Shown one piece after another: positions 9,097-60,276 of a stretch of DNA of 64,000 nt. This stretch comes from a virus. The notes beneath the pieces were generated by a model. That model was given only the letters and a program-made list of their open reading frames with translations. It made no database searches and was not told the origin of the DNA. The position numbers were made by a program, and so were the translations under genes. The stretch is from the IMG/VR virus record IMGVR_UViG_3300024261_000005; one strand, 5' to 3'. The number at the start of each line of letters is the position of its first letter. Within the stretch, counting starts at the first letter, position 1.

Positions 9097-10152
9097 TTAC
9101 CCTTTCTTATGTCTGTAATCCAACCCCCTAAAGGGGGTGAATCCATGCTTGTACTTAGTACCTCCAGGAACTCTATACTTTGAATTCTGTGTAGGCTGAA
9201 CATAACCTTCGACCCAGGGGTCATGCCACTCCCTGGAGTTCTTATATCCTTTTCTTGACCTACCTTTTTCAGCGTGCTGTGGCCCGAGTCCTTGCCCGTT
9301 GACAATGCAGCCACCAGCATTTACTACACGCCACCATTCGTCCCGCTCTGCTTTCAACTCTTTAATAAGATCGGCTAAGTCAAAATCTAGCGAATCTTTA
9401 TTTTCAATTAATAAGTCACCTAATTGCTTCTTTTTACCATCGTTCCCATATGTACCGATTGGCATCGAAAGTAATCTTAATCCAGCATCGTACATTACGA
9501 ATCTAGTTCTAGCGAAATAATATCGTTCTGAAGTTGGCCTGACCCCAGTGATATTGTCTGCTTCCAACGAGGACCAATGTATTGATAGCGCAATCGTATC
9601 GTCAGTAACATTAGCGACCCAAGCACCCAGCTCCATTTTGAGCATCTCAACAGAAGCATAAAATGGGTTGTACTCAGTAGTAAAAAATAACTCTAAGGTT
9701 TTAGCTAAGGAATTTCCTTCGGTATCTTTCAACCCCTCTAAAGTTATGAATACCAAACTATTAAAATCCAACCCGCATTTTGGTTGGGCTATCAGGCCTC
9801 CGCTAGTTACTTCAAACCCACCCTCAAAGGTGACGTTTTCTCCAAGCAGAGAAACGGTCCAGGAATCTTTCCAAACCCCACTTACTGTGGGGGTGTAATC
9901 AAAGTACCAATAGCCAGTATCAATCTTGGTAACTTGCAATCCGGGATCAATAATATTTCCGCTAGGGTCTGTTAGCGTAACTGTAGCTCCAACAGGATCT
10001 ACAGGTGCCCCATTCAAATCAGTAAAAAGCATTTTTAATTTAACTGCTTCATTAATTTGGATCGTGCTTCTATTACACTTTATCAAGACTTTCTTAACTG
10101 GGACTTTAATTGGAGTGCCACAATCATCATTACTAGTATTTGAACAACTCAT
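9097..10152 (-). CDS. Putative head-tail adaptor with N-terminal Ig-like domain
   Basis: Beta-rich N-terminus (TGYWYFDYTP..GVWKDSW) plus helical C-terminus; synteny. Confidence 0.5.
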   Translation of the reverse strand: MSCSNTSNDDCGTPIKVPVKKVLIKCNRSTIQINEAVKLKMLFTDLNGAPVDPVGATVTLTDPSGNIIDPGLQVTKIDTGYWYFDYTPTVSGVWKDSWTVSLLGENVTFEGGFEVTSGGLIAQPKCGLDFNSLVFITLEGLKDTEGNSLAKTLELFFTTEYNPFYASVEMLKMELGAWVANVTDDTIALSIHWSSLEADNITGVRPTSERYYFARTRFVMYDAGLRLLSMPIGTYGNDGKKKQLGDLLIENKDSLDFDLADLIKELKAERDEWWRVVNAGGCIVNGQGLGPQHAEKGRSRKGYKNSREWHDPWVEGYVQPTQNSKYRVPGGTKYKHGFTPFRGLDYRHKKG

Positions 10153-10161
10153 GGGATTCTC

Positions 10162-11355
10162 CTAAAATTCTAAAGTAATTTTATTGTCAGAAACTGATAT
10201 TATTTTATATATTTTTTCTGGCCTGCCAGATCTAGTAGACTTTGGGCCGTCAAAAATTCCGCTTACGGACTGAGACTCAATCTTTATATTTTCTTGAGTA
10301 GCTGTAGCTGCATCAATATTATTGTTAAATGTTAAAACTATTTTATTTAAATTCAAATCCACATTAATGTCCCCAGTCGAAGGCTGCATTGAAGCTAACT
10401 CTAGATACGCCCCCACTGCTTCATTCTGCTGGTTGGGTATCAGTAAGCCATCTGGAGCAATAGGGCTTGTTGACGTATACTCAGGATAGACAAAAATAGA
10501 TTCTGTCCCAGTACTGAACGTTACTAAATTTGAGACACTCAGCAAATCCTCTTTATTTGCTTCCACGATGAAGGCCTCGTTTAATAAATATTCGCCCCCA
10601 GTGAATTTTATTAATATACCACGATCAGTTATCCGCCATCTTTGAACGCACCTGCTTAAGCGTGAATTGTAATTACTGGAAGCTGGTTGTGGTTCTGCCT
10701 CGTCGTCAAACCACCATTTAAATTTGGCCGCTGAACCACTGCCTGCTTCCACGATTTTTAAATTCAATGAAGCTGTAACTTCATTGTTTTTTGGCTCAAA
10801 GCTACCAGAAGACTTTATTCTCGCATCTCCTGTTTTAACTCCACCAACCAGCGTATAAGCGTCGTAAACTGTTCTCTCTGAGACACAATTGCTTTGACTG
10901 TATGCTTGTATCTCTGCAGGGATGTTCGCAATGTTATTTAAACTCTCTCCGCAAATAAATAAATTATATTCTGTATTAATTCTAAGAGGCTGTTTTGGCG
11001 TTATGACCAGAACGGAGTATTTTGCTCCAACACTCTTTTCGTAAATCTCTTGGTCATCCTCTACTTTTAATTCCGCAAGGTTGTTAACTAAGTATGTCGA
11101 ATACTCACAACTGACATAACCTTTGAACATCGGAGAGGTCAGAAAGAACGGGTTAGTTCCATCAGACTGATTTAACCACAAGCCGTTATCTGGCCCAGAA
11201 GTTACATCGGAATCAGGACCATATATAATCACACTCTCTTTTGCAGTTTTTAAATCTATTGCCCTGTCGAATACTAAAACTATTTCCTGTCCAATAGGAA
11301 ATTCTGCTTCAGAGTTCGTCGGGTAGCTTTCATCTGCTTTCAATACTATCGCCAT
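10162..11355 (-). CDS. Virion protein with Ig-like (Big_5/SbsA-type) domains
   Basis: YP...PIGQEIVLVFDRAID, ITPKQPL..NTEY and IVLTFNNNID patterns. Confidence 0.55.
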   Translation of the reverse strand: MAIVLKADESYPTNSEAEFPIGQEIVLVFDRAIDLKTAKESVIIYGPDSDVTSGPDNGLWLNQSDGTNPFFLTSPMFKGYVSCEYSTYLVNNLAELKVEDDQEIYEKSVGAKYSVLVITPKQPLRINTEYNLFICGESLNNIANIPAEIQAYSQSNCVSERTVYDAYTLVGGVKTGDARIKSSGSFEPKNNEVTASLNLKIVEAGSGSAAKFKWWFDDEAEPQPASSNYNSRLSRCVQRWRITDRGILIKFTGGEYLLNEAFIVEANKEDLLSVSNLVTFSTGTESIFVYPEYTSTSPIAPDGLLIPNQQNEAVGAYLELASMQPSTGDINVDLNLNKIVLTFNNNIDAATATQENIKIESQSVSGIFDGPKSTRSGRPEKIYKIISVSDNKITLEF

Positions 11356-35329: not shown

Positions 35330-36090
35330 AAATAATGATTGGATTGCCCGCTTGGAAAAGACCTAATGTATTAAGGGTGCACACTTACTATATGACCAAA
35401 TATATAGTTCCGGAATTGAACAGAAGAGGTTTTGAGGTAGACTATTTGGTTGTAGGCAGTAGCAAGACTGAAAGAGACGTTGTCGAAAAGTTTGGTAATG
35501 TCGAATTTTACGAAATGCCAAATATATTGTCTAATAAAAATAACCATATATACAACCAAGCGAAAGCCAGGAATGTAGACTTTTTACTTTGGCTCGGCTC
35601 TGATGACTTTGTGGCTTTAGACTTACTTCTGTTTTCAATAGAAGTCGCTATAAAGAATGAGTACTGGTCATCATTGAAGAACATGTACATGTACGATTCT
35701 TCTTTAAAAGTCATGAAGCATTTTATAGGCTATTTGCCTGGGGCCAGCCTAGTGGAGCATGGTTTGGGCGCAGGCAGGATCTATACTAAGAAAGCATTAC
35801 AAAGCCTACCTGAAGATGTTTTTGGTTACAACAAGATGAGTGGTATGGACGGCTGTCTTAAGCAAGCACTGGATCAACTCAATGTTCCAGTAAATCAAAG
35901 ACTGATTACGTCCAGTCCAAATAAAACTATGTTTAGTTTTAAAACAGAGCAAAACATATGGTCGGTAAATGATTTCCCTCCGCAAATTTTACATACGATG
36001 GATTTCGATTTTAACAGTGCTAATTTTCATTGGCTGGATGATTCTGTAAAAGTGATGTTGGATATGATTGAGCCAAAAAACCTTATGTAG
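35326..36090 (+). CDS. GT2-like glycosyltransferase
   Basis: IGLPAWKRP, LVVGS, LGSDDF, GAGR. Confidence 0.7.
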   Translation: MKIMIGLPAWKRPNVLRVHTYYMTKYIVPELNRRGFEVDYLVVGSSKTERDVVEKFGNVEFYEMPNILSNKNNHIYNQAKARNVDFLLWLGSDDFVALDLLLFSIEVAIKNEYWSSLKNMYMYDSSLKVMKHFIGYLPGASLVEHGLGAGRIYTKKALQSLPEDVFGYNKMSGMDGCLKQALDQLNVPVNQRLITSSPNKTMFSFKTEQNIWSVNDFPPQILHTMDFDFNSANFHWLDDSVKVMLDMIEPKNLM

Positions 36091-38412: not shown

Positions 38413-41400
38413 ATGCGTAACGCCATTATCTCATTCTTCTTCGGCCTGCTGTGGACTACTGTATGCTATTCAGTGTATGTAGCCCCACAAGCAGCGTCTG
38501 TGTCCGTCGTGGATGCAGCGCCAACTTATGTAGCAGAGGCTCCAAAGTCTCTTGCTACCAACCGCACCACACCAGCAACCGTTAAGATTGACCATCTTCG
38601 CAGTACTACCATTAACAGTGGAAGCTCTACCCCTAGTCAGAGTACCTTCCCCATCAACCACAGCGCATTACGTCCTAATAATTGTCGTATTGTGCGCCGT
38701 AGAAAGTTGAAGTCACGAAAAGGTAATCACCTGATTGGTGATGTCTTTATCAAGTTCATTTTCAGTTACCACCGTGTAACTTACATGAGCGACAACTGGT
38801 TATGTTATGAAGAGACGCCTTACACAGAGGCAGACTTCAAAGTGAGCGACCCAGCTAAGGCCCGCAAGAAAGCAAAGAAATCCTGGCGGCAGCTAAAGGG
38901 TGAGGCAACACGTCTTTACCAGAAAGCTGCGGTTTTACGTTTGCGCAATCCAGAATATCCGCCTGCAATAGCTCGTGCGGTGTTTGCCAAAGCACAAAAA
39001 CTTCATCACCGCGCAAATGTTATGAAGAAGGCACTCAAAGAGTCTCAACCAACGGCGCGTCAACAGCGTCTATTCAGACGAGAGCTCTTCAGGGCACAAG
39101 CAAAAACTTGCCAGCAGTTCATTAAAGCTGAGATGGTGAGTAACGTTGATGAAGCCAATGAGCTGATTCAAAAGGTTCTCAGCGGTGATACTAATGGAAC
39201 TGCATTGAGACTATTACAAAAGAATCAATTAGGCCGTATTTACATAAAGCATGGCCTACTGCAAGTAGCGGCAAAAGAGGAAAAGGTTGAGAGACCTACG
39301 AATCCACGAGTCGTACACCACAAAGTAAAGCAAGAAGAAACACCTGTAAGAGTGTGGACGCCATTGATGCGTGCTGCTATCGTTCTTGTCGCACCACTTA
39401 TGTTAGGCATGAGTGCAGACGCAGGTACCCTAGTAGAAGTTGCTTACGCGGGTGCAACCACAGCGACAATACTGAAGATGACCTTGCAGAACATCTTGAA
39501 CACTCCAGCACGTAAGCGTGAAGCGGCGCAAGACGGGTACAATCGCTATGCTGAGCAGTCTATCAAGTCTGCAAAGAGTAGTGAGTGGGATGTCTTCTCG
39601 CTTATGCGCTTTAGCCGTAGTGGCAAGGGTGGAGTGAATCCCAACGGTAAAGCTCACTTAACCGACAAACAAAAGGGCAGATGTGTTCGTATCGTCCAAG
39701 ACAGCATTGGTGGAGCTTACTGTCCGAAGGTAAAGTCATTCGCCAAGATGCTCGGCATTGAGCTCGGCGTTGATAATTGTCTTCGCTACGAGATCGATGA
39801 TCAAATGGATGAGGTACTAAAAGCTGACGTAGTAGAGATACTTATGGCAGCTCGCTTTATTATTCTGTGTGATGGTTTTGCTGTCCACGAGAGTATTGCT
39901 CGTCCATTCATTGAGTACGGTGAGGCGATGTTTGAGAACGCAGTAGGTGTAAGATCTTACTTCCGCTCTTTAGTCACTACACCGTCTTTATACGTGGTCA
40001 ACGAAGATCTACCCATCTTCTTGGCTGACCTAGCCACTTTAATGGGTTGGGTTGAAAACGATGGTGGTGCAGTGCACACGAACCGCCTTTCGATCTCGAT
40101 GCAGTTTAGAGGAATTGCTAAGGTACTCGAGAAGAAATACCATGTTCTCAGTAAGGGCATTTCTACAGGTGCCAAGGTGATCGCTGACATCACTGACGGT
40201 ATTGATAAGCCTAGTTTCGTTAACTACGAGGGCGATGAGCCAGGCCACGTCAAGGGTGAGGTCCGCCTAAGCAAAAAGGTAGACGAATGCATTCGTGTTG
40301 CAGTCGAAGAAGAGTTCAATGCTCTCCACGCTGTGAATGCTGCAACAGAACAACAACTGTGTCTCGTCCATGGCATTGGGATTGAGACCGCCAAGAAGAT
40401 CATCAAAGCACGAGTAGATGCAGGGGGACGATTTACAGACATGGACGCTTTCTACGGTGTGTCTAAACGTCTCGATCCTAATAACCCCGATGCCCTTAAA
40501 GTATTACGCTGGACCTTTGGTCACAAAGAGCGTGTATATAGTGTGGGCTTGTTCCTTGATAAATCTACATTGAAAGGGGCAGATAAAAATGCCTGGGATT
40601 TTGATAAGCTCAACCTTTTCGGCATCAATGGGCAAAATGTTGATTTCTGGGCTATCGCTATCGATCAAATAGGTGGTGAGATTTCATTGGGATGGCAAGT
40701 TGTTCAGCTATTAGATGCCGACTTCATCGGTGGATTGTTTCAGAACCTTGATGGTAGCTATGGGATTGCAGCTGAGAAATTAGCAAAGCAAATTGACAAT
40801 GCTATTGAAGCAGAGCACCCGCTGGTAAAGAAACTCATTAATGCTATCGATGATGAAGGTGGTGAATACGAAGACCTTATGCCAGCTGTGAAGGCCATCT
40901 CTGTCTTGCAGGGCCTTGGCAAGACCGCGTCCAAGCGCATCAGCAATGGTCTCGGTGCAAAGGCGGGCTCCTACTATGTCCAGATGATCGACATGGGTGG
41001 CGACTGGGTCATCATCAAAACACCCAAAGCTAAGGACGGTAAAGGCTTTAAGCGCTGGGCTGCATGTTTCTTCGGCCGCACGCCGAACCAGGGACATGAA
41101 ACTGTGCGTGCTCCCATGGCACTTTCACCATCTTATGTTGGCGCATTCTTGAGGGATTACCTCAAAGATGGACTTGAAGGAGTTGAGAAACATGGCAAAC
41201 AAGCAGAGCAGTTTTGCATGAAACTGAATATTAATTGCGGTCATGACAATGATGCAACTCGTTTACGCTGTCGTGCGATCTTGACTATGTTACCGGGTGT
41301 TATTGATGGCATTGCTCTCGTTGACAGCACTCTTCAACAAAAAGTGTGTGGAGATAACGACGGTGATAGAAATATGATCAGCTTCGATAAGATGCTGGTC

Positions 41401-44400
41401 AGCATCGCCAAGCATATCACCCGTAAACATCCGGCTACGTTCCCTGCGCGTGAGCAGTCAAAGAAATTTGTACTGAACACGTTCGATGACGTGGTCTTGG
41501 AGAAGGGTGGTTGGCTTCGTAGCTTTGATGAATATATGAACACCGGAGACTCTTCAGAGTTACTTCTAGTCTCCAAGTTCCTTTCTGCCCCTGGTGGGAC
41601 TCCAGGACAGGGGAACGTCGGTGGTGTGACGCAATGTGCTGCTGCACCCATGTTGTTCTGCGAATGGCACTGGGTTAAGAAAGGTGGCAAAGACGTTTAT
41701 GAGCCTGTCAATCCAGCTGCTCGTAAGTTAGTCAACTATCTCTATCTGTGTCAGCAGATTGCAATTGATAGGCAGAAATATTACTACCTAGCACCGTCAC
41801 TTCTATTCTGGTTCCTTGCTGACTTGACTGTTGGTGAGGCAGTCATTAAGCAGCTGAAAGCAGGTGGCCATGTAGACTCTAAGTGGCTTCACAGTCATTA
41901 CCCTATTCAGGGTGCTGCTGATATGTCGTTCGAAGAATACCAACAGGCTTGGGAGAATGGTACTCTACCAGAGATCTCAGAAGTAATACCCGGTATGGGT
42001 AAGGGCGCTCTTGGTGGAGAGTCTGTCGCTCCAATGATGTATAATAACGGTCCGCTTTATGTGCACACGGCATGGCAGGTTAATGCCATCAACCTCGGCT
42101 TCGGTTACTTTGACGAGAAAATGATGACTGAGCTTTCTGAGTTCTTCGATAAAGAGACCGCTCAGACTGCTAATTGGGGAGCCATTGTCAAACACCTTGG
42201 TCTCACCATCTCAGCTGAAAAACTGGAAGAAATGTGGGTTTGGCCTAGCTACATCACAGGGTGGGTTGGACTCAATTTCCGGAGCAATCAAGATTTAGCT
42301 CCAGAAACATTCCAATCAGCCCGAATCCACGCAAATAATGTGTGGTTAGAAAAGATGGCAAAAGCTGGACTGAATGCAGATCCTGCAGTTACATTGTCTG
42401 AAAGTCCTCTTGCTGAGGTTCTGAAAGAAGAAGCCGGTGATTACGCTATTGAAATGAAACCGTGGGCTACTCGTTTGCTTGCGACTACTATATACCGTTC
42501 ATATGTCGGTGAAAGTTCAAACGCGGTTGAAGCGATGAGTCAAAGCGCTAGAACCCAAACCGATCATCACGCATCAGGTGCGGACAAGTTGTCGTTCCTT
42601 CGTGCAGCGTTGACATCACGTGACATGAACGTAGAAGTCGCAGATATGTCCGTGATGGATAAGATCAAGAACCTTCGTTTCATCTGGGCTAAAGCTCTTC
42701 AGAATGACAAAATGTCAGATGAGCGACGCTATCAAGTGCTCTGTGCAATGATGCACTTCGGTATCTGTGTAATTAAAGATTGTCTTGATGACATAGAAAA
42801 CGATAAGACCAGTGTTATCGCCACAAATGTGATCTGGGCACTTGAGGATCATACCATTGCTGACATTGCCAAGCTAACTACAAGCGAGGCGTGGAGAGCA
42901 TGGCGCAATGAGAACGATGCAGACCGCAGTACTGCAGTAGCAAAAGAGCGGCGTGAAGCGATGGACAGTGTTCGCAAGTTGATGAATAAAGATGGATTTT
43001 ACCATTGGATTTCAGAGCAAAACCTTAGCACCTTAAAGGCTGAGGATATCGCTACTTGGCTCATCATGGACGGCGAAGAAAGCCACAGTAAGATCATCGA
43101 CTTCATCGGTAGCGATTTCTTTGGTGCTATTGGAGAAGGTTGGGATCGTCAAGAGCTCAAAGAATCTCGCAATAGTGTTGAAGAAGAACTTAACGGTGCT
43201 TTGCAGCATTTGAAGAAAATTCCCGTTGATGACAATTTCATGGATGGGGTTGAAACATATGCTCGAGATCTGATTCAATGGATCCGAGACGATGAGCTAG
43301 AAGCTCAAAGTGGTGAGAAGACTGACGAGGCTCAAATGGCGTGGTATTCTTTGAATGCACGTGAATATGAGCGTGAGGTTGCGTCAATCACTCGACCAAT
43401 CACTTCGATGATTCGTCTTGTGAAGCATCAGATGAGAATCCTCGTTCATAATGTTAACAATGGTGTTAACTTCGAGGACGAGGAAGCAGCTTTCTGGCCT
43501 GCAATCGAAGGAGCCCTCTTCGGCACTCATAAGGAGTTGAATGAGGAAACTGGAGAATGGGAAGAAGTAACTCACGTAGAAAGCCGCATCGTTTACGAAT
43601 TACCAGAGCAACATCTCGCAGAAATGAACCTAGCTGCACTTGAGCAAGGTTATGATGTGGAGATTTTGGTGAATATGATAAATGGTGCTCGCAACTTCTA
43701 CGCAGATGATGAGGGTGAGATTGAGTATCCATCAGAGCCTGAAGAGTATTATCTTACACGAAAAGGGTACATCCATTTGAGCTCTATTATGACGCAAATG
43801 GTTCTTGGAACTAAAAGTCGTGAAGATGTATTGGTATGGCTACTTGCCCAATTTAAAGGCGGTGTAGGTCATGTTACTACTAGTCAACACCTCACTATGG
43901 CGTATGGTCCTGCTGAAGGGCGTGACCACTTCTGGTTCGTAACTTTGGAGCAGTATCCTCAGTTCCACAACGACCTTGTCGTTTGTGAAGTGCAAGCAGC
44001 GTTCGAAGAGTGCTACCCAGAACGTGTGGCTATCGAGTACTTCCATGACGACGATGAAGAGACCCTTGATGCGTTGGAATGCTTTGGTGATCCTCAAAAT
44101 CACAGTGAAGATGATGCGGAGTACTACGAGAATTACTATCGTGAACGATTCGAAGTAGAGCTTTACCTACCACCACTATTTGGTGGCCGTTCTAACTGGG
44201 ATGAGTTGTACGATGGTAAGTACAGTAAGTTCTATGACCAGCAGCTCGTTATGACCCCTTATAAGATGCTACGTACGTATGCATTCATGATGGAGGGTAA
44301 AGATGTGTCTCAAATGAGCCTTCCTACTGAAGTGCGTGATTTCCAGAATGACGTCTTTGGCTACACTGTTGGTGACAGTAAAAAGCAAGATAAGTCACAG

Positions 44401-44940
44401 CAAAGTAGAGAAGCTGACAAACGTACTGGACGTAAGCCTAAACACACAGCTCTAAAGAACAACATGACTAAGAAGTCTTGTGCTACTTGGACATGGGCTG
44501 GAGTTGAGAAACCAATCACTTCAGATCTTGATGTTGATTTTAACGGTTCTGACAACTTGCAGGAGAGTAACAATTTCTGTGATATCAGTGTCCGTGGTTA
44601 CGATAACCATCAGTATGATGAGTGTTGGCGTGGTGCTTACAGCTTGGTGCGTTTTACACCAAGTTTATTGTGGAGCTTCGCTAATGTTATGGAGAGCGGC
44701 GACTTCCAAGAAATCAATGCACGATCTATTGCCAAGGTTGGTACGTCCTCTGTTCGTCGCTACTGTGTGGGTTTCCGTAAGGCTAACTTCACTCAAATGG
44801 TCAAGGGCGTCACAGTAAAGTCTGTAGAGATGAATTCGACAGTGGTACGCGCCCTCTTTGATATCCTTGCGAATGAAGAAGAGTTGGAAATCGGTATGGA
44901 TGCCTTAGGTGGTCCTGACCGTCCATTCACTGTGGATTGA
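38413..44940 (+). CDS. Single-chain two-barrel RNA polymerase (YonO/QDE-1 RdRP-like) with HhH insertion
   Basis: Ordered motifs NDGG, QFR...SKG, GRTP, CGDNDGD (41347-41367), GNVG, QIAIDRQK; HhH VNAATEQQLCLVHGIGIETAKKII. Confidence 0.75.
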   Translation: MRNAIISFFFGLLWTTVCYSVYVAPQAASVSVVDAAPTYVAEAPKSLATNRTTPATVKIDHLRSTTINSGSSTPSQSTFPINHSALRPNNCRIVRRRKLKSRKGNHLIGDVFIKFIFSYHRVTYMSDNWLCYEETPYTEADFKVSDPAKARKKAKKSWRQLKGEATRLYQKAAVLRLRNPEYPPAIARAVFAKAQKLHHRANVMKKALKESQPTARQQRLFRRELFRAQAKTCQQFIKAEMVSNVDEANELIQKVLSGDTNGTALRLLQKNQLGRIYIKHGLLQVAAKEEKVERPTNPRVVHHKVKQEETPVRVWTPLMRAAIVLVAPLMLGMSADAGTLVEVAYAGATTATILKMTLQNILNTPARKREAAQDGYNRYAEQSIKSAKSSEWDVFSLMRFSRSGKGGVNPNGKAHLTDKQKGRCVRIVQDSIGGAYCPKVKSFAKMLGIELGVDNCLRYEIDDQMDEVLKADVVEILMAARFIILCDGFAVHESIARPFIEYGEAMFENAVGVRSYFRSLVTTPSLYVVNEDLPIFLADLATLMGWVENDGGAVHTNRLSISMQFRGIAKVLEKKYHVLSKGISTGAKVIADITDGIDKPSFVNYEGDEPGHVKGEVRLSKKVDECIRVAVEEEFNALHAVNAATEQQLCLVHGIGIETAKKIIKARVDAGGRFTDMDAFYGVSKRLDPNNPDALKVLRWTFGHKERVYSVGLFLDKSTLKGADKNAWDFDKLNLFGINGQNVDFWAIAIDQIGGEISLGWQVVQLLDADFIGGLFQNLDGSYGIAAEKLAKQIDNAIEAEHPLVKKLINAIDDEGGEYEDLMPAVKAISVLQGLGKTASKRISNGLGAKAGSYYVQMIDMGGDWVIIKTPKAKDGKGFKRWAACFFGRTPNQGHETVRAPMALSPSYVGAFLRDYLKDGLEGVEKHGKQAEQFCMKLNINCGHDNDATRLRCRAILTMLPGVIDGIALVDSTLQQKVCGDNDGDRNMISFDKMLVSIAKHITRKHPATFPAREQSKKFVLNTFDDVVLEKGGWLRSFDEYMNTGDSSELLLVSKFLSAPGGTPGQGNVGGVTQCAAAPMLFCEWHWVKKGGKDVYEPVNPAARKLVNYLYLCQQIAIDRQKYYYLAPSLLFWFLADLTVGEAVIKQLKAGGHVDSKWLHSHYPIQGAADMSFEEYQQAWENGTLPEISEVIPGMGKGALGGESVAPMMYNNGPLYVHTAWQVNAINLGFGYFDEKMMTELSEFFDKETAQTANWGAIVKHLGLTISAEKLEEMWVWPSYITGWVGLNFRSNQDLAPETFQSARIHANNVWLEKMAKAGLNADPAVTLSESPLAEVLKEEAGDYAIEMKPWATRLLATTIYRSYVGESSNAVEAMSQSARTQTDHHASGADKLSFLRAALTSRDMNVEVADMSVMDKIKNLRFIWAKALQNDKMSDERRYQVLCAMMHFGICVIKDCLDDIENDKTSVIATNVIWALEDHTIADIAKLTTSEAWRAWRNENDADRSTAVAKERREAMDSVRKLMNKDGFYHWISEQNLSTLKAEDIATWLIMDGEESHSKIIDFIGSDFFGAIGEGWDRQELKESRNSVEEELNGALQHLKKIPVDDNFMDGVETYARDLIQWIRDDELEAQSGEKTDEAQMAWYSLNAREYEREVASITRPITSMIRLVKHQMRILVHNVNNGVNFEDEEAAFWPAIEGALFGTHKELNEETGEWEEVTHVESRIVYELPEQHLAEMNLAALEQGYDVEILVNMINGARNFYADDEGEIEYPSEPEEYYLTRKGYIHLSSIMTQMVLGTKSREDVLVWLLAQFKGGVGHVTTSQHLTMAYGPAEGRDHFWFVTLEQYPQFHNDLVVCEVQAAFEECYPERVAIEYFHDDDEETLDALECFGDPQNHSEDDAEYYENYYRERFEVELYLPPLFGGRSNWDELYDGKYSKFYDQQLVMTPYKMLRTYAFMMEGKDVSQMSLPTEVRDFQNDVFGYTVGDSKKQDKSQQSREADKRTGRKPKHTALKNNMTKKSCATWTWAGVEKPITSDLDVDFNGSDNLQESNNFCDISVRGYDNHQYDECWRGAYSLVRFTPSLLWSFANVMESGDFQEINARSIAKVGTSSVRRYCVGFRKANFTQMVKGVTVKSVEMNSTVVRALFDILANEEELEIGMDALGGPDRPFTVD

Positions 44941-45107
44941 TACACAGTAGGGGTTGAAATTCCTCTATAGCCTTATTGAGTTGTGCGTTACCAACTTGAT
45001 GGTGAATGTTTAGCATGAGTAAGGGGTTCACGTCCCGCTAAGCGTCTAATGCAGACTTACTCAAATTCGTCTTAATCAACCAGCTTGCAACATGAAAGGT
45101 TATACCC

Positions 45108-45536
45108 ATGCAAGAACTACAAGACAAAACCCTGCTGGAGATTGCTAAAGCTTTCAAAGGCTCCTTCATCTACGCCCCAGGTGGCACAGTCAATATTGGC
45201 TGTACTATCTTTGACGGGCCAGCACCTAAAAAGAAAGCTACTCAAGCTCCCAGTGAGGCCCCATCAACACCTAGACGTCGTCATCACAAGAAGGGGGAGG
45301 AAGTTACTGTCCCTCCCAAGGGTCAATCGACCCCACCCCCTTCTTGTGAAAGCGACGAAGATGATAATGGTGTAGAAGCTACCTCTGCTTCTGAAGAGAA
45401 TAACAACTCTGCAGGAAACGAGGCTAGCGAGAACTCTGATGCGTCTAATACTAATGCGTCAGCTCCTCCCTTTAGTGCTTGGGGTGCTCGTCGTCCTCGT
45501 AGTACTCGTAGAGTACCCCCAGCCGGGTCGGCTTAA
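45108..45536 (+). CDS. Hypothetical, largely disordered protein
   Basis: GAAAGG SD; low-complexity Ser/Asn/Glu/Pro content. Confidence 0.6.
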   Translation: MQELQDKTLLEIAKAFKGSFIYAPGGTVNIGCTIFDGPAPKKKATQAPSEAPSTPRRRHHKKGEEVTVPPKGQSTPPPSCESDEDDNGVEATSASEENNNSAGNEASENSDASNTNASAPPFSAWGARRPRSTRRVPPAGSA

Positions 45537-45857: not shown

Positions 45858-46328
45858 ATGTCTGATCAATTAAAACTTCACGATGACGCAAATGAGTTAA
45901 GTTTACCCGAGGCACGATTGACACGGCTAAAGGTTTTACGCGACAAGGTTAATGAGAAAGCGGCATGGAATGGACGAGGTGATAAAAAGCCTGCACGTTC
46001 TCTGTTGGTTGTTGATGGTTCTGACGCAGTGCAAATTGCTTCATACCTCGCAGCTAAAGCTCAATCGTCAACAGTTACCTTTGAGGTAGCTGAGCACAAG
46101 CTCCGTGGCATCTTTGATGACCACATCCGTGAGCTTGAGCGTCAAATCGCTGACGCGGAGAAGGCCAACCAGCCCGATCCAATGCAGGCCGTTCGAGAGA
46201 TGCAAGCAGCAATGCAAGCACAGCAAGCCCAATTCATGCAAATGATGGTGGGCATGATGAGTGGTACTTCTCCCGAGGCTCCTGCTCCTGTCGAAACTGC
46301 TCCCGAGGAAACTCCTGCTGAGTCGTGA
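45858..46328 (+). CDS. Hypothetical coiled-coil protein with Gln/Met-rich C-terminus
   Basis: AAGGAG SD. Confidence 0.7.
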   Translation: MSDQLKLHDDANELSLPEARLTRLKVLRDKVNEKAAWNGRGDKKPARSLLVVDGSDAVQIASYLAAKAQSSTVTFEVAEHKLRGIFDDHIRELERQIADAEKANQPDPMQAVREMQAAMQAQQAQFMQMMVGMMSGTSPEAPAPVETAPEETPAES

Positions 46329-46479
46329 TTTTAGCGAAAGCTGCTCTTCGGAGCAGTTAGTAGTAATCTCGTAACACTTAGGCGTGACGAGACGAGACGT
46401 AAAGTCTCAAGCCATATACTTATATATTAAGGCTTAAAACTAATATATATGATTTAGACTTTTATCATAAAAAAGTCGG

Positions 46480-48460
46480 CAAAATCTTAGTTGATGCAAA
46501 CGGACGTAATGTCGCCAGTTAAATCATTGAGTAATGTCGTGCCGGATCCCTATGTGGACGAGGTGCTTGATGAGTCTACGAGTGTTGAGATACACTTGCA
46601 GCATCCATTCTAAATGGATGTCTCTCCGGAGAACGAAACATTTGGATGTAGAAATACATCAGCGCTTGGGGAAGCGCAATAGAAATATCCAACCAAAGCA
46701 CCAACAGAAAGGGAAAAAATGTTGTAGTGTTTTTGATAGGTGGGACTCGAGGCCTCTTCACTGAGGTAATGATATCCACCGTCAGCCGAAATGCTGACCG
46801 CTTAGCACCCTAAGGCTAAGTAGACTTGAGAAGTTTTTGGGTTTCATCACCTAACTGGTATCCTCTACCAGTAAATAAAACAGAGGTTTTGGAGAATAGT
46901 TTAGGGCTATTCTAGGGTTTGCAGCTATATTGCCGCCCACCATTTAAAATAAGTAGTGAATACCCGCTGGAGAGATTAAGCATCTCCAGTCTGCCTTACA
47001 CAGTCTGATTAGTGTATGAGGTAGGAAGGGGAGTGACTCTTAAAGTCAAAAGTGCCAACCGAACAGATAGGTTGGTTCCGAGTTCTCATGCTTGGAGGTA
47101 AGTCATAGTTAATGGGTGCCATCTCTCAGGATCGAGTGCGATGGTAGAAGCGGAGTTAGCAGTAGAGCGATCTTACGGTGTGCGCACACCAAACTGCTAT
47201 AAAGACTCTGTGGAGGAAAGTGTAGTTGAGATGAAAGTCTTGATGAACAACCTCGTTAAAACAATGTAGGCATGACGTCCTGAATACTCTTCTGAGTGAA
47301 TGGGCCTGATGTGTTGCTTTCGGGCAACGAATCATGACGAGTTACCAATCTCATTAAAATTGGTTCCATGAGCTACGAGAATGGCAACATGGGTAATTAG
47401 CTAGGGTGTGCAAGCCGAAGCTGCGGAGAAGGAACTCCGTCAAATCAAACGTCCCGGTATTCATATACAATTGACGCCCGCAACCTGATTGTGGAAATCG
47501 AAAGGTATGATAAGAACCGGGGCTATTAGATACGTAACAACGTACTAGCTCATCATTCGGATGAGCAGGTAGTCAACAACTTCTCAGGGACCATATGGTG
47601 TGTGCACGCACCTCCCTACCGTTATTTCCTAGGAATAACGACAATAAGGTATAGCTTCTAAGGAATATATAAGAAGCTGAACGGATTTAACTCAAAGCGG
47701 TTTGAGTTTCGTCTGAAAAAAGATCCCCATCATGTAAGATCCTACCAGGTCTAAAGGATGGGGGGACGAAGTAGTCAAGGGTTTAAAAACCCCAGTCCCA
47801 GCTACTTCAAACAAGGTGTGTTGGAGGGGTGGAAGAACTGCAAGTATACTTGTGGATCTTCCACCTCAGAAGGCATATCTTGGGCTCAAGCTGTAATACA
47901 GCCTAAGCCACCCCGTCGCCAACGGGGTCAATAAATCGCATAAGGTTCGCTTTATGTTATTCATTGACCTTCTTGGTCATTAATCATGCAGTAGGACCTC
48001 CCTTGACAAGGAGGGCGATCTGCACCAGCGACAGAAGTCAACTGTCCCTGGTTGAGTGGTGGAAAGCTCCCTTTTTATAGCTGAACAATTCCACTCTGTG
48101 ATAGGGTCCTCCCGAGAAAAGGAGCATCTTTGGACCGACCACCCCATATTATATTGTGGGATCTGGAAGGCGACAAGGTGAAGACCCGAACGAGCGCCAC
48201 GATCAAAGTGGCCTCACCTATCAAGCCCCGCATCGAAGTGATGTGGGCCGGAGTAGAGTTCCCCAGTTAGGGTAGAGCTCCTCCGATGAGAAATGTGCGA
48301 TTAGAGCGCGCAGAGTGGGGTAAGGTCCAGCTGATTTAGGGCCCAGGGAGAAAGTCAAAATGTGCGTTTAAAGCACGTGAGAACTGTTTTCCTAGGGGGT
48401 AGAGACTTATTATTTTGGCCAAAAATGACGAGATGTGACAATTTACTTGTCTTTCCTTGT
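46480..48460 (+). ncRNA. Candidate giant structured ncRNA (about 2 kb; boundaries and strand approximate)
   Basis: No credible ORF; dozens of near-perfect hairpins and nested long-range helices containing G-U pairs on the + strand. Confidence 0.65.
47271..47336 (+). ncRNA. Type III hammerhead-like fold with variant core
   Basis: CATGA-C-GTCC...GGGC-CTGATGT-GTTGC(TTTCGG)GCAAC-GAA-TCATG. Confidence 0.45.
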
Positions 48461-48536
48461 CATAATGAGGTTAAAAGTAGCTATAAATACCTAATATATA
48501 AGGGTTTATAGTTATAAAGATAGAAAGTCGGGGTGC

Positions 48537-48624
48537 ACCTAGTCAAACCCTAGTCCAGCCCTACTCCAACCCTACCTCAGCCCTAGTCCAACCCTAGTCC
48601 AACCCTACCTCAAAGCTAGGCAAA
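48537..48624. repeat. 11-bp degenerate tandem repeat, about 8 copies (consensus CCCTAGTCCAA)
   Basis: acctagtcaaa/ccctagtccag/ccctactccaa/ccctacctcag/ccctagtccaa/ccctagtccaa/ccctacctcaa/agctaggcaaa. Confidence 0.9.
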
Positions 48625-48796
48625 CCCAACAATAGGGGCTCTAAAAGCCCCTTTCAGCAGTAAACCTGCTACAGTCCATCTCTCTGTTGCGAGACATATC
48701 TTACTCACTTGTTGTTTAGTGGGGTAGTTTTGTCTCTTTAAGCTACTTGCACAAATGTTAAATTGTGCTTTAGTTTTGTTCCTTATAGAGAGAAAA

Positions 48797-49075
48797 ATGG
48801 ATATGCGCGCCCTTTTAAGAAGTGCGCTATCCCAATCACCACCGAAAGAAAGAGCAAGGCTCATGAATGAACCCTCCCCCAACCTTATAGAGGAACTCAA
48901 AGGTGACTCGATAAAGGACTTCGACAAAGCGAAAGCCTTTATCAAAACCCACCCACAATGGGCTGAGTTCTTCGAGTCTTGGGGCCAGCCAGGATCGCTT
49001 GGTGACCTCATTCTTTTAGTCACCTTTAAAGGTGACATTATTGTGAATTGTCATGTCCATCAGGGCATGCACTAA
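48797..49075 (+). CDS. Hypothetical protein
   Basis: ORF in the track (48755); purine-rich SD-like sequence before ATG 48797. Confidence 0.45.
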   Translation: MDMRALLRSALSQSPPKERARLMNEPSPNLIEELKGDSIKDFDKAKAFIKTHPQWAEFFESWGQPGSLGDLILLVTFKGDIIVNCHVHQGMH

Positions 49076-49085
49076 TTCACACACA

Positions 49086-49135
49086 ACGCCTAGCCCTCTT
49101 GGGGGACTTTGATAGATTCGACTTCTATTAGGTGT
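49086..49135 (+). ncRNA. Mini tRNA-like element (acceptor + one hairpin + T arm)
   Basis: ACGCCTA/TAGGTGT acceptor; ATAGA-TTCGACT-TCTAT T arm. Confidence 0.5.
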
Positions 49136-49139
49136 TTTA

Positions 49140-49277
49140 GGAAAATCCGTAGAGATAGAGAACCAGCAAGTTCTTTATTGAAGCCGTTATAAGTTTTGCT
49201 GAGCTTATATTCGAAAAAAGGATGGTGCTCGCGCGCGGTTATTGCGAGTTGCAGGGGTTCGACTCCTCTGTATTCCG
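49140..49277 (+). ncRNA. tRNA-like RNA with internal kissing-loop domain
   Basis: GGAAAAT/GTATTCC acceptor (one mismatch); AGGGG-TTCGACT-CCTCT T arm; complementary loops CAGCAA/TTGCTG. Confidence 0.55.
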
Positions 49278-49293
49278 TTACATCAGCCTATGG

Positions 49294-49497
49294 GGAGAGA
49301 ATCACTAATCCCGGTATAGTGGTTTGTCTGCAACCTTGACAACTGTGCAAAGAGTCAACAACGTGACGGAAGTAGGACGCCTTAACGTTATTGGAAGTAT
49401 GCATGGTTAGACATCGATTGAGATGTGGTTACCGCCACATGTCCTAAACCTCAATCTAAAGCAGACAGAATAGAAGGTTCGAATCCTTCCCTCTCCA
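49294..49497 (+). tRNA. tRNA-like RNA (possibly Cys-GCA) with about 130-nt structured insert in the anticodon arm
   Basis: GGAGAGA/CCTCTCC acceptor; CACT/AGTG D arm; TTTGTCTGC/GCAGACAGA extended anticodon stem; GAAGG-TTCGAAT-CCTTC T arm. Confidence 0.6.
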
Positions 49498-50261
49498 GCA
49501 GCCCCTTATGAGAACTACTTCTACGTAGTTGGGGTTCAGGCAATTTCAGTAGCCTATATGGTTGTGCGTAAAGCACCTATACTGATAGCAAAGGTTCTCA
49601 AAGAAGAAGAAAATGCGCGCGATATTAAGCAACTGATTTGCTATTGCGTTCATAAATTCTTTTTTAGTCTTTATTATTAATAACTTAGAAGTTTGACGAG
49701 ACAAAACTTTTAAAGATATTGATTTAAAGATTCATTTAATACACCAATTCTTCTTAGAAAGACAAAACATGTTTAAAATTATTTTGTCGGAAAGGACACG
49801 ATTCATGAAACAGTACGAAGCATACTGCAAGGGAATGGCGTATTTTCCGCCAACAGGACTTAATCCAAGATAAGTCAATAGAAGAAGTGTTCGATGTATT
49901 ACACACATTATGTCGTGCAACACGAATGCCAAATCTATTGACATGTATTCTCGCGTACCCTACTGCACGAAAGCACGCACTACGCGTCTTGCAGTATGGA
50001 TGTCCACGCAGTCGTAGAAACCACAACAGTGCAGGTGCATCATGCATCTGCAAAGGAGTAGAAGAATGACTATCGTCATTATAGTAGTGACTGTTACAGT
50101 CACTATAATATTCACAAAATTGTTTGTTTGAGACTGGGCTGAGGAGCCCTCGAAATGCCACCCCTTAAAGGTTTATTAGCTCGTCACTAATTGTAATAAT
50201 GGTATCGTGGTAACTTTAGCCACATGATTAGACCCCCAACTTTTTGCCGAAAGGGCACAAA

Positions 50262-50777
50262 ATGTATTTCTTTCTCTCATCATCCCCGTTTAACAACCCC
50301 CAAACCCTTAAAAATAATGAGGAGACGACACGACGTCTCCTTAAACAACGTGGTGTAGCTCTCCCCCCAGAGGGCTCTCAACATTTCCTCTCACACCTAA
50401 ACGAAATGAACGTGATCGCAATCAGCGACGCGTTCAAAGCCTTCAATGGCAAGGCAGGCGTACATGAGATCACTATCACATCAGACTGTGCTGTCACCCG
50501 CCTCCAGGGACCCAAAATGGGCCAAGAGAATCTCTCAGACGAGGAGAGAACCCTCCATTCTCGTGGCGAAGGACGACCACCGCAACCAGTGGTTATACGA
50601 CCAGCTCCCTTCCAGTACACAGATGCCATTACACTCGTAATCTTCCCAAATGAAGCGGGTAAACTAGTGTTGTGGACTATGCACAGTGGTCCCGCAATGG
50701 ATCCTGACTTCAGCCATGAAGACTGGAGTGCAAACGCCTTGGCATTCACCCCTGAGGAGGTCAACCATGTCGTGTGA
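50262..50777 (+). CDS. Hypothetical protein
   Basis: GAAAGGG SD before ATG 50262. Confidence 0.6.
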   Translation: MYFFLSSSPFNNPQTLKNNEETTRRLLKQRGVALPPEGSQHFLSHLNEMNVIAISDAFKAFNGKAGVHEITITSDCAVTRLQGPKMGQENLSDEERTLHSRGEGRPPQPVVIRPAPFQYTDAITLVIFPNEAGKLVLWTMHSGPAMDPDFSHEDWSANALAFTPEEVNHVV

Positions 50778-50982
50778 TAGCTGTGTAAAAAACGGAGAAA
50801 TCTGTGAAGACCTCTATATGTTTTCGGGTGACTGTAGCGGAATCCACGAGATCGACGATGAAGTCTTCTGTCCTGACTGCTCACCCTGGAGTCGTCAGGA
50901 AGGAAACAGCTCCCACTGGGACGACGATGAGTGGGGTGGAGACCCCGACGATGTAGCAGGCAAGGCATTTACAGGCTACTAA
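50767..50982 (+). CDS. Small Cys-rich (CxxC...CxxC) acidic protein
   Basis: GAGGAGG SD before MSCDSC. Confidence 0.6.
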   Translation: MSCDSCVKNGEICEDLYMFSGDCSGIHEIDDEVFCPDCSPWSRQEGNSSHWDDDEWGGDPDDVAGKAFTGY

Positions 50983-59742: not shown

Positions 59743-60276
59743 ATGAAGCAAAAATATAAACAACAACAAAATTTCTTATTAAAAGATGAAATTAAATATT
59801 TAAATTCTAAACTTCATCATATTCAATGGCGAGAAAAAAGTACTACAAGCTCCACATGGGTAAGTGGCGGTTTTGAAACCATAATAAATCCGCACCCAGA
59901 GTGGATACTTCCACTACTAGGACACATGCAGTCTTTATTCAAGATAGAGTTCAATTATGTACTGTATTCAAAGTACAGCTCACTAAATCACTCATCTGCA
60001 CCAAGCCAAAACAATGACTTTTACCTCGGAGAGTCTCCTGTGACTCCAATCTTGGGTGTTGGGAGTTCAATCCCGCTCGAAATTACAAGCAAGTACACAG
60101 ACGAGACAGAACGACTGGAACTTAAAGATAACGATTTATTCTTAATAAATCCCAAGCAACAAAACAAATGGCTGATTGCCATCCCTAAGGGCAACCTACT
60201 AGTGGAACCACACTATTCGCTTTCTTTTAGAAAGGTAATTCACTCCAGCGGAGATGAAGCATACTCCAACCTATAG
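59743..60276 (+). CDS. AlkB-like 2OG-Fe(II) dioxygenase fold, apparently lacking metal ligands
   Basis: FNYVL..KY, ILGVGS, L.DNDLFLI, QQNKW..AIPK, YSLSFR. Confidence 0.55.
   Translation: MKQKYKQQQNFLLKDEIKYLNSKLHHIQWREKSTTSSTWVSGGFETIINPHPEWILPLLGHMQSLFKIEFNYVLYSKYSSLNHSSAPSQNNDFYLGESPVTPILGVGSSIPLEITSKYTDETERLELKDNDLFLINPKQQNKWLIAIPKGNLLVEPHYSLSFRKVIHSSGDEAYSNL

Follow-up and report, generated by a model that had tools for sequence, protein, structure and literature searches.

A region of about 2.0 kb in the genome of an uncultured marine tailed phage probably constitutes a stand-alone gene for a structured noncoding RNA (ncRNA), the first described member of a new family in marine phages; its mode of action may be that of a scaffold or decoy. 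The DNA analysed, IMG/VR record IMGVR_UViG_3300024261_000005, is 64,000 nucleotides (nt) long and is referred to here as the window; the proposed gene lies on its + strand from position 46449 to about 48440. A preliminary description made from the letters alone had proposed a hairpin-dense giant ornate RNA at 46480-48460. The giant structured ncRNA outside known families was upheld by the analyses below; the ornate architecture was not, since only local hairpins and junctions were supported.

A gene-free region with strong folding potential

The interval 46329-48754, which lies between the stop codon of a 156-amino-acid (aa) open reading frame (ORF) at 46328 and the next plausible ORF at 48755, was searched for coding potential. 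The longest ORF under genetic code 11 was 77 codons, in agreement with the earlier view that no credible ORF was present, and reading any one stop codon (TGA, TAG or TAA) as sense opened at most 193 codons. When the RNA was compared with its homologue in contig L008 (90% identical), substitutions were distributed evenly over the three codon positions (17/23/25, p 0.45, and 27/32/25, p 0.63), and insertions or deletions of 1-2 nt were frequent. A real ORF nearby, used as the coding control, gave 10/3/48 (p 3e-13). Because the gap is free of ORFs and its substitutions are even across codon positions, the region was concluded to be non-coding. AT-rich flanks were present as described. The gap noted at 46480-48460 is real, and the conserved unit within it was found to be slightly wider, extending from about 46449 to 48420-48463. 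The 5′ limit of the RNA was taken as the onset of conservation. Its 3′ limit is uncertain and may fall at 48418 (end of a U-rich tail), at 48463 (end of the terminal hairpin) or, at most, at about 48660.

The region folded far better than dinucleotide shuffles of itself, with z scores of -5.79 for 46480-47479 and -8.89 for 47480-48460. In windows of 300 nt the mean z for the region was -3.2 and the minimum -7.0, compared with -0.7 in the structural-gene arm and -1.6 in a 2175-aa ORF upstream. Folding was also asymmetric between the strands. In five of seven 300-nt windows (46300-48399) z was lower on the + strand than on the - strand, clearly so in the four most structured (for example, -6.8 vs -3.6 and -4.3 vs -0.9). 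When the five sequences that share the window's type of interior (type A, below) were aligned in four blocks of about 500 nt, the consensus energy reached z -9.5, -11, -20 and -30 against column shuffles, and consensus folding energy was lower on the + strand than on the - strand in all four blocks. Many conserved G-U pairs were found in both the 5′ and the 3′ domain; these would be A-C mismatches on the opposite strand.

Conserved terminal domains and an exchangeable interior

About ten distinct variants of the RNA were recovered from marine metagenome contigs, all at the same syntenic site. Searches with neighbouring genes and motifs yielded L003/L034, L006/L018, L008, L027/L015 and L038, and contigs encoding relatives of the 2175-aa protein yielded L040, L041, L044, L045 and L046. 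In each homologue the giant gene is followed by two small genes and then by a gene-free gap of 1.2-3 kb that holds a relative of the RNA. The 2175-aa ORF (38413-44940; putative polymerase-like) always precedes the RNA, and its relatives down to 28% identity keep about 1950-2270 aa. In contig L047, whose giant protein is 32% identical, the gap was absent and no RNA match was found. The RNA was retained over considerable divergence of the genes around it. In L044 the polymerase-like core is 35% identical at the protein level and the first 700 nt of the RNA are 71% identical at the DNA level; in L045 (core 36% identical) the syntenic 3-kb gap retains the 3′ domain (E 3.3e-35 with covariance model R2, below). 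On these comparisons the RNA is better conserved than the surrounding proteins, the polymerase-like gene included.

Two domains, one at each end of the RNA, are common to all variants. At the 5′ end, conservation set in abruptly at UGAUUUAGAC (46449), and the upstream sequences of L008 and L034 differ up to that point. The 5′ domain, of about 190 nt, comprises a P1 hairpin (46457-46477), a long covarying helix around the invariant 20-mer ACGGACGUAAUGUCGCCAGU (46500-46519) and three more hairpins, and contains two further invariant strings, GAUGAGUC (46569-46576) and GAACGAAAC (46631-46639). Covariance model R1, built for this domain, matched all 10 variants with E values of 1e-23 to 1e-74. In the R1 alignment 96.2% of cells pair and 19 of 55 pairs show compensatory change, compared with 10.6±1.6 in shuffled controls (none of 500 reached 19) and 1-4 when the pairing partners were slid. 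Contig L045 was excluded from these statistics as a run of N at about 10100-10300 interrupts its 5′ domain. Consistent with the model, independent single-sequence folds of the ten variants gave the same series of hairpins. Elsewhere in the window R1 gave one weak match (35480-35665; 12 bits, E 0.1), which is probably due to chance.

The 3′ domain, of about 125-200 nt, includes hairpin Ha (48226-48247) and a twin-bulge hairpin, Hb (48248-48285), with GUAGAG on both strands. These are followed by hairpin Hd, which occurs twice (48295-48309 and 48354-48384; motif GYGCGWUUARAGCRC), the duplication being a feature of the window's type, and by the tail CCUAGGGGGUAGAGACUUAUUAUUUUGG (48391-48418). Model R2 was built from relatives with the other type of interior only (type B), and included no sequence of the window's type. 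It nevertheless matched the window at 48222-48326 (E 1.6e-15), and it matched every variant. In the R2 alignment 92% of cells pair and compensatory change was present in 14 of 31 pairs (shuffles, 8.5±1.6, with none of 500 reaching 14; slid partners, 1-4). Independent folds concurred on the structure. The covariation among homologues that had been proposed as a check on the preliminary description was therefore present at both ends, and the 5′ and 3′ domains are maintained by compensatory change, as is generally required of a structured ncRNA.

Between these domains the variants fell into two groups. A type A interior, with a total RNA length of 2.0-2.3 kb, was found in the window, L008, L027/L015, L038 and L044, and a type B interior, with a length of 1.4-1.7 kb, in L018, L040, L034, L041, L046 and L045; the two interiors could not be aligned with each other. 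Optional modules were found within type A. An extra multi-hairpin module of about 208 nt is present in L008, L027 and L015 and absent from the window, and a hairpin module of about 50 nt occurs at about 46656 in L027, L015 and L038. The 208-nt module had no second occurrence among the fetched loci. The idea of a miniature inverted-repeat transposable element (MITE) or repeat array was rejected, as the RNA has no internal repeats and the 208-nt module was found nowhere else.

The type of interior did not follow the phage backbone. Over the giant gene contig L040 and the window share 87% identity, yet L040 carries a type B RNA, L044 has a very distant backbone yet carries type A, and in L008 the RNA is 90% identical while the upstream genes are different. 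The interior is uncoupled from the backbone and therefore behaves like a cassette that recombination swaps in and out while the ends stay fixed. Through every insertion and deletion both terminal domains were retained, always together and in the same order.

Taken as a whole, the RNA consists of some 50 local hairpins and small junctions in series, in which GNRA and UUCG tetraloops are frequent. The four local hairpins singled out in the preliminary description were all located at the coordinates given there. Its long-range pair, 46572-46579 with 46820-46827, fared less well: both strands of the pair are present, and their pairing was unsupported. No double compensation was seen, mismatches occur in L027, L015 and L038, and the 46572-46579 strand is invariant even in type B relatives that lack the 3′ partner. 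A closing pair between CCCUNNGGG motifs at the 5′ and 3′ ends was likewise rejected, being inconsistent across variants when compared by eye. RNAduplex, applied to the 5′ against the 3′ domain, simply paired both sequences over their whole length and so carried no information on a contact between them.

Several interior hairpins have palindromic apical loops. In addition to the pair at 47597-47640, such loops were found at 47177-47190 (loop GCGC) and 47841-47852 (loop UAUA). The UGCA tetraloop at 47603-47606 is replaced by GCGC in L008, L027 and L038, a single switch from one palindrome to another, and UCCUAGGA is replaced by UCUAGA in L038 with compensation in the stems. Across eight variants 15 of 81 tetraloops were palindromic, three times the 6.25% expected by chance. 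A three-way junction at 47271-47336 also showed compensated stems in L008 (CAUGA/UCAUG to CGUGA/UCACG and GUCC/GGGC to GUCC/GGAC); it is absent from L038 and L044.

Proposed mode of action and competing explanations

Membership in a known family was assessed with Rfam and the literature. Rfam 15 gave no family matching the RNA when the whole window was searched at the gathering score, cmscan of 46300-48800 at E<=10 returned only a chance microRNA match, and nothing relevant was found at E<=1 in four homologues (L008, L038, L018 and L034), as the preliminary description had anticipated for a novel RNA. None of the Rfam models for GOLLD (RF01998), ROOL (RF03087), OLE, HEARO, raiA, group I and II introns, RNase P, transfer-messenger RNA (tmRNA) or ribosomal RNA assigned the RNA to its family, and ARAGORN identified no transfer RNA (tRNA) or tmRNA inside the RNA of any variant. 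At 1.4-2.3 kb the RNA is larger than GOLLD, ROOL and OLE, as had been claimed, and no phage RNA of such a size was found described in the literature.

The closest resemblance is to GOLLD and ROOL, as hinted by T-arm hairpins, adjacency to tRNA genes and palindromic loops. GOLLD and ROOL are RNAs of phages and prophages, often located near tRNA islands, and have conserved and variable parts; in GOLLD, tRNAs are sometimes found in the linker, and covarying palindromic loops mediate self-assembly of a cage (10.1101/2024.12.08.627333). The present RNA lies upstream of tRNA-like hairpins and of tRNA-Lys (53367) and tRNA-Met (53531), both identified by ARAGORN and Rfam. In 7 of 10 variants the 3′ quarter of the RNA contains a canonical T-arm-like hairpin whose stem covaries. 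Like GOLLD, it is a very large ncRNA carried by a phage beside tRNA genes, with one universally conserved part, a variable remainder, and tRNA-related modules in or beside the variable part. It differs in that it matched no GOLLD model at E<=10, in its length (GOLLD is about 0.8 kb), in its arrangement (the conserved part of GOLLD is its 3′ region and the variable part its 5′ region, whereas the present RNA keeps both ends and varies in between) and in its source, uncultured marine phages of about 160 kb. GOLLD forms a homo-oligomeric nanocage through kissing loops, and the palindromic loops of the present RNA are only an indirect hint of such assembly. With ROOL it shares occurrence in phages or prophages near tRNA islands, many hairpins and no known protein partner; in contrast to ROOL, it had no Rfam match, is three to four times longer, and shows covariation that does not support pseudoknots or long-range helices.

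The proposed gene would form a single transcription unit, co-directional with the arm of small ORFs and tRNA-like elements and running from an AT-rich promoter-like element to a U-rich tract and a GACGAGAC hairpin. The transcript would then act during infection, either as RNA or as the RNA part of a ribonucleoprotein. In this model the terminal domains would provide the working core or the signals for handling the RNA, and the interior an exchangeable specificity. The most likely mode would be that of a large scaffold or decoy RNA with a part in the takeover of tRNA and translation by the phage, as proposed for GOLLD and ROOL. Given the excess of palindromic apical loops, the RNA may self-associate through these loops.

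GOLLD, ROOL and OLE form RNA-only cages or dimers. To our knowledge, few large ncRNAs lack an assigned role, and every such RNA solved so far has brought new RNA biology to light. The present family would be two to three times larger than those three RNAs and comes from abundant uncultured phages of the ocean. Neither GOLLD nor ROOL has been described as combining fixed ends with a swappable modular middle, as this family does. The ten natural variants, two of them with the optional 50-nt and 208-nt modules, offer a ready-made deletion series for cryo-electron microscopy and for studying the pairing of giant RNAs with tRNA islands. A more far-reaching reading, for which we would claim only a modest chance, is that of an unprecedented class of giant phage RNA (1.4-2.3 kb) with a universal two-part core, in which folding would bring the 5′ and 3′ domains together, and an interior payload swapped by recombination, serving as a particle that self-assembles through palindromic kissing loops or as a tRNA-mimicking decoy against host defences that target tRNA or translation. 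If true, this would be the largest non-ribosomal functional RNA of bacteria and phages.

Several observations weigh against a single large structured ncRNA. We infer its ends, strand and expression, taking the ends from conservation and flanking motifs, and consensus scans of the + strand found no sigma-70-like promoter or canonical intrinsic terminator at the proposed ends. Adjoining stretches called as ORFs likewise reach z -3 to -5. Over the full length, compensatory-pair counts were barely or modestly above those obtained by RNAalifold on column-shuffled alignments. When the minimum free energy (MFE) fold of the window alone was tested, pair retention equalled that of slid controls, the sole enrichment being in double changes; the 2-kb single-sequence MFE is a poor model for this reason. 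The long-range helices of RNAalifold had little support, since some of their pairs are broken and few are compensated. The data thus do not demonstrate a globular, ornate fold, and independent hairpins strung one after another could make up the RNA. Palindromic loops can equally arise by template switching at the DNA level, and the window's own RNA has no T-arm-like hairpin. Finally, the roughly ten variants belong to only 4-5 sequence groups, which limits statistical power.

The main rival, which we consider rather unlikely, is that the region is an RNA operon, in which a 2-kb precursor is cut into small structured RNAs (sRNAs or tRNA-like decoys), the ends being separate RNA genes and the interior a variable set. 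Such a precursor would account for the support of local hairpins and junctions but not of long-range helices, and for modules that are gained and lost independently and interiors that are unrelated between common ends. In addition, tRNA-like units, potential substrates of RNase P and RNase Z, lie immediately downstream, and T-arm-like hairpins occur in most variants. However, no internal boundary motif or upstream AT-rich element was found within 46404-48426, ARAGORN and Rfam gave no tRNA inside any variant, and the terminal domains always co-occur in a fixed order, whatever the interior between them.

Quite improbable is a transcript that serves the neighbouring DNA, either as a long structured leader for the downstream genes or, like ColE1 RNA II, as a replication primer or regulator for an origin at the 11-bp repeat array of 48527-48629. 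The RNA ends about 60-100 nt ahead of an AT-rich hairpin and the array of 7-8 units, and a block at 48483-48547 is conserved in L040, L044, L045, L008 and L018. The terminator-like hairpin at about 48636-48660 also means that the unit could run on through the array. Against this, L038 and L034 keep the RNA although their array is irregular or missing, the GACGAGAC hairpin stands between RNA and array, and 2 kb with two conserved structured ends far exceeds the needs of known leaders and primer RNAs.

Very little probability attaches to a feature of the DNA itself, in which the hairpins would be cruciforms, or palindromes bound by proteins, at an origin, a packaging site or a hotspot of recombination, and no functional RNA would be made. 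Perfect DNA palindromes do occur at 47177-47190, 47620-47640 and 47841-47852, and the interior behaves as a recombining cassette. Folding energy that depends on the strand, in single sequences and in alignments, would not be expected of such a feature, nor would conserved G-U pairs or frequent GNRA and UUCG tetraloops, and binding to DNA does not require compensatory changes that keep about 50 different stems.

Least credible of all is a known catalytic RNA (a self-cleaving ribozyme, of the hammerhead or another class, with large insertions), the remnant of a group I or II intron, or a decayed protein gene: the invariant CUGAUGAG and CGAAAC of the 5′ domain and the topology of the 47271-47336 junction recall a hammerhead core, but neither satisfies its core and pairing requirements, no Rfam model (Hammerhead_1, _3, _II, HH9 and HH10 among them) matched the window at E<=10 or the four homologues at E<=1, flanking exon halves are lacking because the upstream gene differs between relatives, and a pseudogene is contradicted by the want of codon signal. 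Specifically, the 5′ motif was rejected because the window has U at C3 (CUUGAUGAG) and because no stem III, A15.1-U16.1 pair or partner for the cleavage site H17 follows GAAAC in type A or type B, and the junction because U takes the place of A9 and the 15.1-16.1 pair is flipped.

Flanking elements and neighbouring structures

The candidate gene for the 2.0-kb structured ncRNA is bordered on both sides by candidate signal elements, which are listed with its internal features below.

Features of the proposed ncRNA gene and its flanks (window coordinates)
Feature	Position	Strand	Basis
GACGAGAC repeat downstream of a GC hairpin (46339-46358) and of the stop codon of the preceding gene; candidate transcription-unit boundary signal	46381-46403	+	motif enrichment
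AT-rich hairpin (AAGCC...GGCUU, 46409-46435) and TAATATATAT element; candidate, promoter-like	46409-46449	+	covarying stem, conserved block
Proposed giant ncRNA gene with type A interior, about 2.0 kb	46449-48440	+	absence of ORFs, no codon periodicity, fold z, consensus energy, synteny
Conserved 5′ domain	46449-46641	+	covariance model R1, covariation, independent folds
Three-way junction with hammerhead-like core (CUGAUGU ... GAA)	47271-47336	+	stems compensated relative to L008
Insertion site of the extra 208-nt module of L008, L027 and L015	47366-47367	+	locus alignments
Hairpins with palindromic apices, GGUGUG-UGCA-CGCACC (47597-47612) and CGUUAUU-UCCUAGGA-AAUAACG (47620-47640)	47597-47640	+	compensated stems
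Conserved 3′ domain	48222-48418	+	covariance model R2, covariation, independent folds
Hairpin AUGACGAG...CUUGUCAU with GACGAGAUGUGAC motif, just past the U-rich tail; candidate 3′ end signal	48425-48463	+	motif, position

The boundary motif was enriched in the window, where GACGAGACRWGAC had 8 matches compared with 3.05 expected, a count reached in none of 100 shuffles. The extended form GACGAGAC(N)GAC occurs on the + strand at 46381-46403 and 48427-48439, at 49695-49707 after a cluster of tRNA-like elements, and at 60100-60112 after another tRNA-like element. No copy was found inside the RNA, and in the homologues the motif lies at both flanks of the RNA. A U-rich tract, CUUAUUAUU or 'CUUUAUUAUU', precedes the motif at 48405 and again at 49670 (49670-49707). 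From this distribution we infer that GACGAGAC(N)GAC would be a boundary signal of transcription units; it may be a lineage-specific terminator or processing signal.

Upstream of the RNA, the stem at 46409-46435 covaries, GCC/GGC being replaced by GUC/GAC in L038, and a TAAtAyATATG block ahead of the RNA start is conserved in eight variants. The possibility that TAATATATA is a genome-wide phage promoter was rejected, as the motif is not enriched (33 matches vs 22.8 expected).

Directly downstream of the RNA, at 48527-48629, lie 7-8 tandem units of 11 bp resembling CCCTAGTCCAA (a CCCTA array). L008 and L018 share the start of this repeat block, GGGTGCACCTAGTCAA, but have an irregular array; L038 and L034 have no array. 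At about 48636-48660 the repeats are followed by a terminator-like hairpin, GGGGCTCTAAAAGCCCC / GGGGCUCUAAAAGCCCC-UUU and then TTTC, which is also conserved in L008 and L018. It looks like an intrinsic terminator, although its T run is below the threshold of the terminator scan. The unit could truly end at this hairpin, or a short RNA further downstream could.

The source of the window was identified from its genes and its relatives. It encodes a terminase large subunit, a portal protein and a giant protein with an SNase domain, together with an arm of small ORFs. The terminase shares only 24-28% identity with its counterparts in cultured jumbo myoviruses, the relatives of the window are marine metagenome contigs of about 158-162 kb, and blastn against 50,697 GenBank phages gave zero matches. 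The 2175-aa ORF was negative in searches of PDB, PHROG and Pfam except for a sub-threshold match to HHH_3 (24.2 bits, cut-off 27), and the small proteins flanking the RNA had no Pfam or PHROG family. A scan of viral contigs with a pattern for the 3′ domain found no match. A pattern scan of genome contigs gave one match, in Enterococcus hirae (L039), which was dismissed as due to chance as it has none of the other motifs.

T-arm-like hairpins (5-bp stem, UUCRANY loop) were found on the + strand at 49117, 49258, 49478, 53343, 59938, 59967 and 62902, in addition to the two tRNAs named above, consistent with tRNA-shaped RNAs with unusual interiors noted earlier from the sequence. Structure was also predicted outside the proposed gene. 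At 49000-50800 the + strand has z of -4 to -5, and the - strand is at about 0 at 50200-50800; this segment includes the listed ORFs 50244-50777 (+) and 50378-50968 (-), both of which have no Pfam or PHROG family, and may contain further structured RNAs. At 45100-45399, within a 142-aa ORF (45108-45536), folding was strong on both strands, with z of -3.6 and -4.9.

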